In this document: piece by piece, positions 756 through 20,858 of the stretch
Position numbering within the stretch: the first letter of the stretch is position 1
How the letters are laid out: every line of letters starts with the position of its first letter
Origin: Eledone cirrhosa
Lineage: Eukaryota
NCBI GenBank assembly: GCA_964016885.1
Contig: OZ024741.1
Span: forward strand, 11,408,001 to 11,472,000
DNA: 64,000 bases
Reading direction: 5' to 3'
Program-made: the position numbers and the translations under genes
Notes under the pieces: model-generated
What the model was told of the DNA's origin: nothing
What the model saw: the letters and a program-made list of their open reading frames with translations, nothing else
The model's database searches: none

Positions 756-1249
756 ATACATATATATATAAACCCTGCTGGTCTTCCATAAACAACCTTG
801 CCTGGACTTGTGCCTCAGAGGTGAACTTTCTGGAAGGAAATCCCATGGTCATCCAAAGATGGCTACTTACATATATACCTGAAAGGGTGAGTATGGTTTG
901 GTTGGCAGAAGTCTTGGGTAGGGATTAGCGTTTAGTTTAGGGTAGTTGCTGAAGGTAAATAGACTGATTGGAGCAATAACAGTCTTATTTACGTATAAAT
1001 ATATATATTCATCATCATCATCATCACTTGTTTTACATCCATTCTTCCAAGCTAGCATGGGTTAGACGGGTTGTCCTTTTGTGGGCAGTTCAGGTTGGGT
1101 GACCTTGTCTTGCTCATACGGGAACTGATTCTGGCTTGATTTCTACAGCTGGATGCCCTTCCTAACACCAACCTCATTTACAGTGTGGGCTGGGTGCTTT
1201 TTTACTGTGGCACCTCCACGACCACTTTCCAGTGGGAGGGGGTGGGGAC

Positions 1250-1490
1250 ATATATACACATATATATATACATATATATATATACATATATATATACACA
1301 TATATATATACATATATATATACATATATATATATATATACATATATATATACATATATATATACATATATATATACATATATATATATACATATATATA
1401 TTTACATATATATACATATATATATATACATATATATATATACATATATATATATACATATATATATAATATATATGTACATATATATAT
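1250..1490. repeat. (TA)n/(TACA)n microsatellite
   Basis: Directly visible; explains the spurious YI-rich ORFs. Confidence 0.95.
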
Positions 1491-1795
1491 GAATGTATGT
1501 ATAGTATATTTGGCAATATACCGCATGTTTAATTAAAAACATTTTGAAGACCATACGCTATCGGTTTTAAAGTAATGACTATGTCACTTACTTCTTTTCG
1601 GTGGAAGCAGGGAGTGCGTGGCTCTGATGATCGCCAACCAGCGTAAAACAGACTGTTAGCTTCTCTCCCTTCTTTCGCCAAAAAGAAGTAAGTGACATAG
1701 TCACTACTTTAAAACCGATAGCGTATGGTCTTCAAAATGTTTTTAATTAAACATACGGTATATTGCCAAATATACTATACATACATTCATATATA
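1485..1795 (+). repeat. Long inverted repeat (~117-bp arms) whose loop is a mutated type I hammerhead ribozyme
   Basis: 1485-1601 is the near-perfect reverse complement of 1678-1795. The loop has CTGATGA (1624-1630), stem II CGC/GCG, AAAA instead of GAAA (1645-1648), ACAG-A-CTGT and GTT instead of GTC. It is homologous to 19387-19582. Confidence 0.85.
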
Positions 1796-1814
1796 CATCG
1801 AGGCATATATACAT

Positions 1815-2148
1815 GGAAGCACATGGCTTAGTGGTTAGAGCATTGGCCTTTCAATCGAAAGGTTGTGAGTTAAATTCTCAGACCGGGTGATGTGTTGTTT
1901 CCTTGAGCAAGACAATTTATTTCACATTGCTCCAGCTTACTCAGCTGTAGAAATGAGATGATAGGATTGGGGTCCCTATCATTCCACTGTAAAGTGGTCG
2001 TGGAGGTGCCATAGCAAAAAGCACCCAGCACTCACTGTAAATGAGGTTGGTGTTAGGAAGGGCATCCAGCTGTAGAAATCAAGCCAAAATCAGTTCCCGT
2101 CCCACCCTTGCAAGCGGACGTAAAATGAAATGATGATGATGATGATGA
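1815..2148 (+). mobile_element. tRNA-derived SINE with RTE-like 3' tail and (GAT)n end
   Basis: A-box TGGCTTAGTGG, B-box-like GAGTTAAATTC, body CCTTGAGCAAGACA, tail GGTGTTAGGAAGGGCATCCAGC. A close copy lies at 7708-8055. Confidence 0.85.
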
Positions 2149-2329
2149 TCGCTATTTCGGAGGACCAATCCAAATATATATATATATATGGCAGAATTAA
2201 TGACAGCTCTATAGATGAACGGACTCATACGCGTGAGGTGAGTCGGGTCACCCCAACCCCTGGGAACTTACCCATAGAGCAGACAAGAACTGAGACCCGA
2301 CACCAGAGATACCGTGGTTCTTCTCGAAC

Positions 2330-2760
2330 TACCCAGGTCGATAACAGAAAATGTAATTGCAGGAACACCGCCACTTGCTCCATAGCTGGGAAATGCCTCA
2401 TCAAAAACATAGTCTACAACTGTCAGGTCTCCACTTTAGATAGAACCTTCAGGTATGTTGGAGCAACTGCCACTGAATTTAAGGATAGATGGTATAATCA
2501 CCACCATATCTTTAATAGATTAGATAAAAAAAATAGCACGGCGCTTTCTGAATTAGTCTGGAAGCTTAAATAACAGAATATAGAGCACTCCTTATCCTGG
2601 TCCATTTGCTCAGCCCAGCCATATAACGGCAGCACGGGCGTCTGTAATTTATGTATAGCTGAAACCTTTAATATTATTAGAGGCGGCCCTCTATTAATCA
2701 ATAGGAGAGTGGATTTTTTCAGTAACTGCCAACATAGAACCTCGAAAACCTTCCACAGGA
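2330..2760 (+). pseudogene. Penelope-like element fragment: GIY-YIG endonuclease preceded by a Cys-rich motif (Neptune-like)
   Basis: KCNCRNTATCSIAGKCLIKNIVY...RYVGAT...FKDRWYNH...STALSELVWKLK, then an in-frame stop, then CNLCIAE. Homologous to ORF 6137-6655. Confidence 0.85.
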
Positions 2761-4387: not shown

Positions 4388-4579
4388 GGAAATTTATACC
4401 ATGCCTTCGGATCTTTATTTTGATACAAATACTCCGTTTTACATCATCTAGCTGTTCCCATAAATGGAATTGGAGATATACAAAAGCGTGGAGAACTTAA
4501 TATTGCTAACAAAAGTTTATTGCACCATATGACACAACCAATAATACACCTTACTATATAACAACTATATATATATATA

Positions 4580-6655
4580 CCTACTCCTTCCAACACAACT
4601 TATACCAAACTGCTTATAGATAAAATCGAACAAGTCGTTAAAAGAATGGGATGGAAGGCAATGGTTTACGATGGACTATTCAGTGCTAATACAAATGATT
4701 GTTTTGACATAAAATCCCGTAAATATCCATCTAGAATTAAAGACATGGCCAACTTCGAATTAGACCTTGTTAATTTAATTAGTGATATCAAATTTCGTAA
4801 GTACAATAATAATTTTCAAACTAAACTTTCTAACGATATTTCTAATTTTAAAAATTCTACAAATACTTTTGTTCTTTCCGATAAAACTAAAAATCTCTTT
4901 GAAGTTAATAGTATTTTGTATAACCAACTGTTAACTAATAGTATCACCAACAAATATCAATTAACTAATAATAACACCTATAATACTATTAATAAAGAAG
5001 CTAAAGAACTAGCTAGTTCTTTAAAACTAGACAACCGGATTGAAAGCCTAGCTAAACGTAAAGCATATATTACCCTTAAATACCATAAATTAGACTTTAC
5101 TAATCGACCTAGTTGTAGACTGATTAACCCGGCTAAATCCGAAGTTGGCCTTGCAAGTAAAAAAATCTTAAGAAAAATAATTCTCCAAATTAGAACTAAG
5201 ACTGACTTATCACAGTGGTTAAACACATCATCTGTTATTTCTTGGTTTAATAATATACAAGGTAAAAATAAGTGTAGATTTACCCAATTTGATATTGTTG
5301 ATTTTTACCCCTCTATTACTGTTTCCTTATTAACTAATGCCTTAGAGTTTGCAAGACCCTTCATTAATATTTCTAAATTAGAAGAAGACATTATCTTTCA
5401 TGCTAGGAAAACTCTACTCTTTACTAATGAAAGTATTTGGGTTAAAAAGTCAAACCCTGAAAACTCTTTTGATGTTGCAATGGGTTCATATGACAGTGCG
5501 GATGTGTGTGAATTAGTAGGATTATTCCTTCTCCACACCCTTAAAGAGAAATTTCCGTCCCATAATATCGGTTTATACCGAGACGACGGATTGGCAGTTT
5601 CTCATACCACCAACGGCCATAACCTTGATAAATGCTGTAAAGATTTAATCAATACCTTTGCTAACCTAAACCTTAAAATTACTATAGATACGAACCTTAC
5701 CAATGCTAACTTTCTTGACATTAATCTTGATCTACTTACCGCCTCTTTTAAACCTTTTCATAAACCTAACGAGAATCTAAGATATATACACAAAGAGTCT
5801 TGCCATCCCCCTATAGTTTAAAAAAATCTTATTCCTAATATTAGCCGAAGGATTTCTACCTTATCTTCATCCCTAGACATTTTTAACAAAGCCCTTAATA
5901 ACAGCAGCTTTACAGAACATATTAAATATTTACCTACTCCTCCCCCTAAAACTAATCACAATAATAGGAAAAGGAAAATTATTTGGTTTACACCCCACCC
6001 CTTCGCTCTAACTGTCAAAACTAATGTAGGAAGGAAATTCCTTGACCTCCTAGACAAACATTTTCCTCTTAATCATAGATATTATAAGATATTTAATAGA
6101 AATGTAGTTAAAATCAGTTACTCTTGCTGCCCATCAATGAAGTCTAAAATCACCAATTCTAATCGGACGAGAATAAATCCAGGATGCAGTTGCAGGGAGC
6201 CGGATGAATGCCCATTACAGGGCAAATGTAATACCAAATCCGTTGTATATGAGGCCGAAGTGACACCTTTGATTAACAACCAGCCAGCCACAAGTGAACG
6301 ATATGTTGGCATGACTCAGGACAGGTTCAAAACCAGGTTTTATGCACATGTCGCTTCTTTTAAACACTCTGATAAAAGGACAGCCACGGCTCTCACAAAT
6401 AAGGTGTGGGAATTCAAAGATAAAAACATCCCGTACTCTATCGATTGGTTTATTTTAGACCATTCGAGGGAATACCAAAGGAGCACAAAGAATTGTTCTT
6501 TGTGTACCACTGAAAAATTTAGAATTCTACAAAACTTGAAAGCCACTTCAACTTGCCTGAACTCCAAGACCGAGATCTTCAGATGTTGTCCTCACCTGAA
6601 ATCACATCTGCTCTGTAACTGGATTGACATTCCTACGATGACTCAACCACCTTGA
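4580..6655 (+). pseudogene. Penelope-like retroelement (RT + GIY-YIG), disrupted
   Basis: RT motifs CRLINPAKSEVG, QFDIVDFYPSI, VAMGSYDSADVCELVGLFLL, GLYRDDGL and NFLDI. In-frame TAA at 5819-5821 and a frameshift near 5995, then CSC...CPLQGKC...VVYEA...RYVGMT...FKTRFYAH...CSLCTTEK. Confidence 0.93.
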
Positions 6656-19222: not shown

Positions 19223-19585
19223 ATTAAACATACGGTATATTGCCAAATATACTATACATACATTCATGTATATATCGCTATTTCAGAACACCAATCCTAA
19301 TACCTAATTTTGTCTCGACCAACAATCGCGCTGTATAATCAGCTCCTGATTATTACTGGAATTCTATAAGAATCCAGCTTCTATAATTTTCGGTGGAAGC
19401 AGGGAGTGCGTGACTCTGATGATCGCCAACCAGCGTGAAACAGACTGTCAGCCTCTCTCCCTTCTTTCGCCGAAAAGAAGTAAGTGACATAGTCACTACT
19501 TTAAAACTGATAGCGTATGGTCTTCTAAATGTTTTTAATTAAACATACGGTATGTTGCCATATATACTATACATACATTCATATA
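19223..19585 (+). mobile_element. ~315-bp hammerhead-bearing unit with terminal direct repeat (retrozyme or Penelope pLTR-like)
   Basis: ATTAAACATACGGTAT(A/G)TTGCCA(A/T)ATATACTATACATACATTCAT starts at 19223 and again at 19538 (spacing 315); hammerhead at 19387-19476. Confidence 0.75.
19387..19476 (+). ncRNA. Type I hammerhead ribozyme with conserved core nucleotides
   Basis: Long stem I (TTTTCGG/CCGAAAA, AGGGAG/CTCCCT, GACT/AGCC with one mismatch); CTGATGA 19416-19422; stem II CGC-CAACCA-GCG preceded by a U-U pair; GAAA 19437-19440; stem III ACAG-A-CTGT; GTC with predicted cleavage after 19449. Confidence 0.78.
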
Positions 19586-20858
19586 TATATATGTGTGTGT
19601 TTGTCATGAGGGACAAGGCAGGGTTTTATCAATCTTGGCTTATATATTTGTTAATCCTTATCTATTTCCTTATCTAAACACACACACACACACACACACA
19701 CAGAAACACACACACAGACACACACACAAAACACACATGAATTCTTTTTGAGGATGTGACAATGTTATACCTGTGTGTATATATATGTGTGTATGTATGT
19801 TTGTGTGTGTGCGTGTGTGTATATCTGTGTATGTATATGTCCATGTAAAGTAGACTGTGTAACAGTCACCATATATTTTCAGATCTAATCACACAAGTGA
19901 CACACAGACACCTGATGTTTCCCACTGTTATTGACCTGACTAATGTCGCAGTAAAGGGCCAGAAAGTTCCTCTCTAAGGTGCAAGCCATGGTGAGGTGTT
20001 TTATAGAACATCAGTTGTCATTCTTGTATGACAGTCTTCCATCTTCATGTCACAATTGTTATCCAAGGGAAAGACAGAGGCTGACAGCTTGGCACCAGTG
20101 ATGTCACAACTCATATATATACATTACCTTTGTGTGGACTTTTCCATGCTGGCATGGGTTGGATAGGACTTTTTGAGGTAATTTTTTACAGCTGAATGTG
20201 CTTCCTGACACCAACCCTTTTAGTCAGTTTTTACAACACACAGGAGATACAGTGTACCTATTGTAAACCAGATACACACAATTCTTATATACACTATATA
20301 TGACATTTTGTCAAATGAAAAAGGCAAAGATTGATACAGCTTGATACCAGTGCCATTCAACAGAGTAGAAGGGAAAATGTACAAGGGTACAATGTACAAG
20401 GGCCGAGCCAAAGAATCAAAATCATGACTTCATGACTATGAGTCCAACACCCTAACCATTAACCTACATACACTGGCCAACTTTACATGCTACTAAAATA
20501 CTCATTTATTAAAACCCTTTTGATACCAACCCACATGAAACTGCCCCTTGTGTTATGATACAAAACTGCACATTTTAAAATTATCATCATCACCGTTTTT
20601 CCATGCTTGCATGGGTTGGACGGGTCCTTTTCAGCATCTCTTCACTTGTTGCATTCCTTCATCATCTCCTCTGTGAGTCTCAGTAATTTAAGGTCAGCTC
20701 TCACCACATGTGCCCAGGTCTTTCTCAGTCTACCTATACTGTGCCTTCCTTCCACTGGCATTTCTTGGAACTTCTTCACCCAGCGATCATCATCCACACA
20801 TATCACATGTCCGTATCAACGCAGTCTTCTCTCTTGCACACCACCAGATTCCTCTTAA

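Follow-up and report, generated by a model that had tools for sequence, protein, structure and literature searches.

How does a ribozyme motif come to lie in the loop of a palindrome whose arms are copies of the sequence downstream of it? The question is raised by one locus in the window, that is, in the whole 64-kb stretch of DNA analyzed here (G000:C2:11408001-11472000, part of a 3.0-Gb eukaryotic assembly), where positions 1491-1800 form a palindrome with a hammerhead motif, at 1595-1684, as its loop. An inverted-repeat search returned arms of 146 nt (1469-1614 and 1665-1810) that are 92% complementary and separated by a 50-nt spacer. When stem I of the ribozyme is excluded, 102 of 104 bases match between 1491-1594 and 1685-1790, the mismatches lying at 1524 and 1575. 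The palindrome is asymmetric: the right arm bears a tail of ~29 nt (2148-2176) that is missing from the left arm. In addition, a SINE interrupts the right arm, which picks up again at 2148-2176, which aligns to q49-77 of the repeat unit, numbered here on a sister copy as q1-315, with the ribozyme at q162-251 and the predicted cleavage after q224. The tetranucleotide ATCG stands on each side of the SINE (1797-1800 and 2148-2151), and other copies of the same SINE start at the equivalent of window positions 1805-1813 and stop at 2143-2149.

The initial annotation had placed this palindrome correctly, with every coordinate of its description right, and had stated that unique sequence upstream of the motif in the sister copy is replaced at the palindrome by inverted downstream sequence, and that the right arm is interrupted by an ATCG-bounded SINE and resumes at about 2148. 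All of this holds: the sister copy has an intact motif at 19387-19476 preceded by unrelated sequence, and the near identity of the two arms and the alignment of the resumed segment are as given above. The features of the locus are collected in the table. The tRNA-headed SINE is itself present twice in opposite orientation, at 1010-1245 (-) and 1805-2147 (+), bracketing the microsatellite and the palindrome; the two copies make a larger inverted repeat, the inner part of which matches the stretch 1967-2017, likely edited in a copy of the locus described below.

Features of the palindromic locus and of the sister copy (window positions; q, positions in the repeat unit).
Feature	Position	Strand
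(TA)n/(TATATACA)n microsatellite, insertion target, left flank	1250..1490	
Inverted arm, unit q252-315 + q1-50 in reverse complement; outer end (1491) of the short type (S), abutting the microsatellite	1491..1594	-
Hammerhead-like motif, palindrome loop	1595..1684	+
Stem I, 5' strand (window motif)	1595-1623	+
CUGAUGA (window motif)	1624-1630	+
Stem II (window motif)	1631-1634/1641-1644	+
AAAA, G12 changed to A (window motif)	1645-1648	+
Stem III (window motif)	1648-1650/1654-1656	+
GUU (window motif)	1655-1657	+
Stem I, 3' strand (window motif)	1658-1684	+
Direct arm, unit q252-315 + q1-52	1685..1800	+
Later SINE insertion, tRNA-like head and (GAT)n tail, between two ATCG	1801..2147	+
Direct arm continued, ~29-nt tail q49-77; long (L) outer end at 2176, then a short (TA)n run from 2177	2148..2176	+
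Sister copy, full unit q1-315 + q1-50, S end, (TA)n flanks	19226..19590	+

The hammerhead assignment rests on the conserved core and its helices. The core CUGANGA, GAAA, and NUH triplet is present in the sister copy (CUGAUGA, GAAA, and GUC, all intact, with cleavage predicted after 19449) and in most copies of the family, and the core columns are invariant or nearly so among 39 aligned copies. Three helices can be drawn around the core, with stem I open, and 92.9% of their 1136 cells are paired, versus 49-56% after the partner has been shifted by 1-3 columns. Stem I of the sister copy is long (~27 bp) and strong, with an MFE of -39.5 kcal/mol and z = -5.1. Covariation did not rise above that of shuffled alignments, although the family is so young that this test is uninformative; two pairs show double changes, one of them CG to UA in proximal stem I. 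Rfam at its gathering threshold reports no hammerhead in the window, and under relaxed settings the HH9 model scores 18.6 bits for the sister copy, 13.8 for the window palindrome, and 22.4 for a B-type copy, against a gathering cut-off of 52. The copies fall into two subfamilies that differ in the basal pair of stem II and in the cleavage triplet: U-U and GUU in A, A-U and GUC in B. GUU is still compatible with the NUH rule for hammerhead cleavage. A second CUGAUGA...GAAAC motif, with a short stem II, occurs at 24037 (+), outside this repeat family, and has no Rfam match at E<=1.

The window palindrome fails the hammerhead core, having A at G12 (AAAA for GAAA), and with this change and the inserted SINE it is now dead, though its RNA would still fold into a long hairpin. 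Two core mutations had been ascribed to it. The change of GTC to GTT does not stand as a mutation of this copy, GTT being the state of the whole of subfamily A. The change of GAAA to AAAA is present, but it is not private to the window copy, recurring at loci L014, L055, and L038. G12-to-A is common to at least three unlinked subfamily A copies, including L014, L055, and the window (position 1645), and its origin may be a source element in which the ribozyme was already inactive.

The repeat to which the motif belongs is 315 bp long and protein-free, and the frame that opens at the AUG inside CUGAUGA runs for only 22 codons. A search of the animal's own genome with the sister unit gave 3072 first-look candidates, the 40 that were scored being all 93-100% identical and near full length, and a 22-mer from the tail occurs 2296 times in the 3-Gb genome versus 0 times for its reversed control. 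The family has over 2000 copies and two alternative 3' ends ~30 nt apart. These ends can be read directly: the short one, S, lies at ...CATTCAT (~q47-50) and the long one, L, at ...CCAATCCTAATA(CC) (~q77-84), and both abut (TA)n. Across the family, a (TA)>=4 run lies within 24 nt of 68 of 109 outer ends, versus 12 of 158 control windows. Mapping of 30 full-unit loci revealed variable 5' ends, indicative of 5' truncation, and partial tandems of up to ~1.7 units; the unit coordinates used here derive from BLAST against one reference copy and are blurred for diverged subfamilies.

Head-to-head pairing is a common state of the family. In a sample chosen by position and not by structure (the first 100 places of the 22-mer, corresponding to 83 loci of contig 1 in order, of which 80 were fetched and the last three left out), 46 of 80 loci hold copies in inverted head-to-head pairs, defined as a minus copy followed by a plus copy within 80 nt, and in the paired loci nearly all junctions fall elsewhere in the unit than stem I. 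The breakpoints of such ordinary pairs are unrelated between the two arms, which are separated by gaps of 0-30 nt or overlap by 2-3 nt. The outer ends of a pair, in contrast to what independent ends would give, almost always differ: one S and one L end were found in 24 of the 25 positional pairs whose two ends could be read, and in 13 of 14 such pairs from the full-unit sample, whereas solo copies (23 S and 14 L ends) predict ~47% mixed pairs by chance. Two loci of unusual form were also seen. L080 and L081, which lie 3 kb from each other, are mirror duplicates, and at L117 (G000:C1:70861464-70863455, positions 740-1253) two copies cut at q172 face each other across (TA)n, with the unique flank mirrored too, so that this locus, unlike the other pairs, is an inverted duplication that includes flanking DNA.

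Fold-backs that begin in stem I recur elsewhere in the genome. The genome was searched with 100 bases spanning the left junction of the window palindrome (1556-1655), and among the 40 candidates scored at least 24 other loci align over the full length of this query at 81-96%. After L038 (a copy of the window locus) and L037 (a duplicate of L036) were set aside, there remained 19 independent loci whose junction falls within stem I and three (L051, L052, and L060) where it lies 1-23 nt outside the helix. The stem-I fold-back is therefore found at 20 or more independent loci including the window, in both subfamilies A and B and between unrelated flanks. This bears out the earlier proposal that the fold-back starts at ribozyme stem I. 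The point at which the inverted 3' strand crosses over to the native 5' strand within stem I varies among loci, for instance between L035, L042, and L053 on the one hand and L032-L034 on the other.

The fold-back is nonetheless a minor form. Exact-pattern counts gave 7 true fold-back junctions versus 325 normal ones; another 5 of 12 raw pattern matches (L012 and L141-L144) were discarded, being normal copies on the reverse strand with T>G in stem I. In the positional sample 1 of 45 junctions is a stem-I fold-back (L080/L081, of a diverged subfamily). The stem-I fold-back is thus a real but minor hot spot, ~2% of copies, with an enrichment of the stem-I junction that we put, roughly, at 5- to 30-fold. 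The palindromic form is not the family consensus, a status that by the initial annotation's own account would have spoken against its reading, and a MITE-like TIR element was rejected on the same junction counts.

The truncation points of the copies provide a view of where reverse transcription ends. Among 79 arms with a terminal alignment at least 88% identical, 17 have their 5' end at q1-20, the full-length start, and 23 have it in q225-251, the 3' strand of stem I, a density of 0.85 per nt versus 0.12-0.16 elsewhere. Inspection by eye of 12 ends in q225-251 confirmed at least 8 as true ends abutting flank or partner; some of the 23 are alignment breaks of diverged subfamilies. As 5' ends cluster in the very strand that reverse transcription, proceeding 3' to 5', meets first, at q251, we infer that stem I stalls reverse transcription. 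The clustering of breakpoints on the ribozyme structure that the initial annotation had looked for is hence seen, but it is a property of all cDNA 5' ends, at q1 and in the stem I 3' strand, and solo and paired arms are alike in their distribution.

The reading that we favor, with reasonable though not high confidence, is that the palindrome is a head-to-head insertion of a hammerhead-bearing, protein-free repeat into a (TA)n microsatellite, in which the arms are two separately target-primed cDNAs made by a Penelope-like enzyme and joined by annealing at the self-complementary stem I. Specifically, the enzyme would nick both DNA strands and prime one cDNA on each. One cDNA would stall after entering the ~27-bp stem I, where 5' ends cluster, and the second would copy through the ribozyme. 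Both cDNAs would be minus-sense and yet able to pair at stem I, a hairpin stem being its own complement: the 3' end of the stalled cDNA, corresponding to the stem-I 3' strand, would be complementary to the complement of the stem-I 5' strand in the cDNA that passed through. Overlap extension would then yield the order arm, ribozyme, arm, with loss of the unique upstream sequence. Ordinary pairs and fold-backs could accordingly arise by one process, in which two strands are primed, one per start site, and the cDNAs are usually end-joined and occasionally annealed; a single process for both is the parsimonious reading.

The annotation that first described the locus had proposed instead that a single minus-strand cDNA, copied through the ribozyme, snapped back on its own stem I and primed a copy of itself. 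The stem-I junction and its recurrence, on which that proposal was built, are confirmed, and they suit it: the junction lies in register within stem I, varied crossover points are expected from self-priming, and in the window the arms are identical at 102 of 104 positions and the inverted arm is shorter than the ribozyme arm, as a copy-back would be. What does not stand is the idea of a special accident of one cDNA, given the inverted partner at more than half of the positional loci. Both models give the same central sequence, but the outer ends discriminate between them, because a copy-back arm can hold only what the first cDNA held. Both ends could be read in 18 fold-backs: 16 of these combine an S end with an L end (15 before the SINE-split tail of the window copy is counted, which makes the window LS), and just 2 have mirror-image ends, SS or LL. 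Among the 16, the ribozyme lies on the S arm in 8 and on the L arm in the other 8. In 7 of the former 8 (L032, L042, L045, L047, L049, L050, and L054) the inverted arm, which has no internal ribozyme, holds the ~30-nt tail that is missing from the ribozyme arm and therefore is not a snap-back copy. Ordinary pairs likewise require two cDNAs, since their arm breakpoints are unrelated, making two cDNAs the norm of the family. Self-priming from one cDNA thus seems to us unlikely as the general explanation, being ruled out for these seven fold-backs; the window copy itself, with an L ribozyme arm, an S inverted arm, and arms that are 98% alike, is compatible with it and may have arisen by snap-back as readily as from two cDNAs.

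Two further explanations place the inversion after insertion or before amplification. Were the fold-backs descended from one or a few founding events and multiplied thereafter as whole units, in the manner of a self-propagating MITE-like or TIR-like palindromic subfamily, loci should share their peculiarities, and a few do: L046, L048, and L049 have a common out-of-register (12-nt) junction, and L050 and L054 have a common junction shortened by 7-10 nt together with the same substitution on both arms. The flanks differ in both groups, and the first three are not segmental duplicates; moreover, L038 is the window fold-back locus copied elsewhere, likely through RNA. These shared odd junctions hint that some fold-backs were themselves re-copied as units. 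As an account of the fold-backs in general, however, amplification of a palindrome is quite improbable in our estimation, given how few exact fold-back junctions there are beside normal ones, the variation in crossover points, and outer ends that coincide with the two start sites, both orientations being represented (8 versus 8), as fresh priming predicts. Fold-backs also occur in both subfamilies and are unclustered on a tree of 56 copies, 15 of them fold-back rows, built without the stem-I 5' strand: the fold-back state requires 14 changes for 15 rows (shuffled mean 13.5; 403 of 500 shuffles as low), although this tree has no well-supported branch and hence cannot prove multiple origins. Less probable still, to the point that we give it very little weight, is a DNA-level inversion after insertion, in which extrusion of the stem-I hairpin during replication or repair duplicates one side in inverted form. 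Stem I is a ~27-bp imperfect inverted repeat in DNA too, and the inverted duplication at L117 does take in flanking DNA; but the fold-back arms stop exactly at the S or L termini between unrelated flanks, whereas a DNA event would carry the flank along.

A copy of the locus on another chromosome offers a view of the palindrome as RNA. Positions 1195-1962 of L038 (contig 5, G000:C5:130240890-130243989) are a copy of window positions 1250-2017 with its own microsatellites and unrelated flanks. Over 548 ungapped bases the two differ at 38 positions, comprising 37 T>C and 1 A>C changes, with no A>G, C>T, or G>A, and L038 is the derived copy, because family copies have T at the changed sites. The T>C changes affect 34 of 90 T's in the two arms plus SINE 1967-2017, the latter being complementary to an inverted SINE fragment at ~1205-1245; they affect 3 of 17 T's in stem I and none of the 58 T's in the ribozyme core and the unpaired part of the SINE (Fisher p = 2.5e-9). 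Seen from the minus strand, these are A>G changes; just 3 of the 37 are preceded by G, and the base that most often follows is A (14 of 37). In the portion of Porath et al. 2017 (PMC5625713) available to us, the invertebrate ADAR hyper-editing context is described as depleted of G upstream and favoring A downstream, and hyper-editing of long RNA hairpins is likewise recognized by one-strand A>G (here T>C) clusters confined to self-pairing stretches. What differs is that the changes seen here have become part of the genomic DNA at another locus, and reverse transcription is required for that. From this sequence pattern, L038 is likely an ADAR-edited RNA hairpin copied back into DNA: a minus-strand transcript of the window locus would have folded as a long hairpin, been hyper-edited in that state, and been reverse-transcribed into another chromosome. 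The changes might alternatively stem from a polymerase-eta-like WA>WG process or from an artefact of assembly. L038 would serve as a natural structure probe, indicating that in cellular RNA the arms pair and the ribozyme region is unpaired. A broader proposal is offered tentatively and at slightly less than even confidence: in vivo, stem I may act as both roadblock and splint in a double-ended Penelope-type insertion, with fold-backs as the fossils of that step, and the palindromes may be live sources of dsRNA that is ADAR-edited and can be written back into the germline, as L038 suggests.

The window also holds candidate retroelement coding sequence. An ORF at 4562-6655 (+) encodes, in this order, YRDD, a Cys-rich linker, and a GIY...YVG motif, a Penelope-like layout, and a separate fragment at 2124-2573 (+) with the same endonuclease-like motif adjoins the palindrome. 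Pfam gave nothing in three nearby ORFs, and the nearest Atlas clusters of the retroelement ORFs near the palindrome carry RVT_1. No match was found between the repeat unit and the ORF region at 4562-6655. We file the repeat as a putative non-autonomous, retrozyme-like passenger of a Penelope-like element (PLE). A match to U2 snRNA at 27709-27853 (-) scores 51.7 bits (gathering 46) and misses most of the 3' half; it is probably a pseudogene or fragment. For studies of insertion, the family amounts to around two thousand small, easily aligned insertions in which the start site and the stop point of each arm can be read. It gives handles on the PLE mechanism in the form of a near-absolute one-tail rule, stops in stem I, and a junction class derived from hairpin complementarity. 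For genome annotation, it suggests that such palindromes be filed as PLE-type insertions and not as a new class of fold-back element.

Inversion through two priming events has a counterpart in the twin priming of L1, in which, as Ostertag and Kazazian reportedly described in 2001, cDNA synthesis is primed from both ends of the target break and an inversion results when the two products join at microhomology. The two parts of such an L1 insertion are said to be different regions of one RNA. In contrast, both arms studied here represent one and the same 3' region and each terminates at a start site; their joint uses ~20-27 nt of hairpin complementarity.

The closer likeness is to endonuclease-bearing PLEs, whose insertions share with this family truncation, pseudo-LTR tandems, a head-to-head inverted copy, a one-end tail, (TA)n targets, and a hammerhead motif upstream of the region where reverse transcription starts. 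As described in the portion of Craig, Yushenova, Rodriguez and Arkhipova 2021 (PMC8557442) available to us, PLE insertions have high 5' truncation, partial tandems (pseudo-LTR), and an inverted 5'-truncated copy adjoining the 5' end, with a 30-40-bp tail often at one end only and a (TA)n bias, and the building of tandem and inverted insertions is there called undefined. Purified Anolis Poseidon protein cleaves and extends both strands, its reverse transcription starts in vitro at a pair of neighboring internal sites in the RNA, which delimit the tail, and ribozyme-dead templates insert equally well with it (PMC11167929). The repeat described here differs from PLEs in having no ORF and in its recurrent class of junctions based on stem-I complementarity, a class that we did not find described in the available portions of PMC8557442 and PMC11167929.

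Animal retrozymes have been proposed as non-autonomous PLE derivatives, according to the available part of Li, Clavereau and Pollet 2026 (bioRxiv 10.64898/2026.07.22.740005). Metazoan non-LTR retrozymes (Cervera and de la Pena 2020, PMC7229834, and the same preprint) resemble our family in being short, AT-rich, non-coding repeats with a type I hammerhead and a short stem III, and the U-U pair that closes stem II in one subfamily here has also been described for an axolotl motif. A search of passages of PMC7229834 did not find the word "inverted", and "snap-back" was absent from the 12 papers listed, of 57, by a full-text search of the hammerhead retrozyme literature. Retrozymes are tandemly repeated short units, each bearing a type I hammerhead, and are expressed as circular RNA; the copies seen here differ in being mostly 0.3-1.7 units long, most of them <2, rather than long tandem arrays. 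The palindrome is thus a PLE-type insertion of a retrozyme-like repeat, a known type of insertion, and its modest mechanistic interest lies in the stem-I junctions and in the apparently edited retrocopy.
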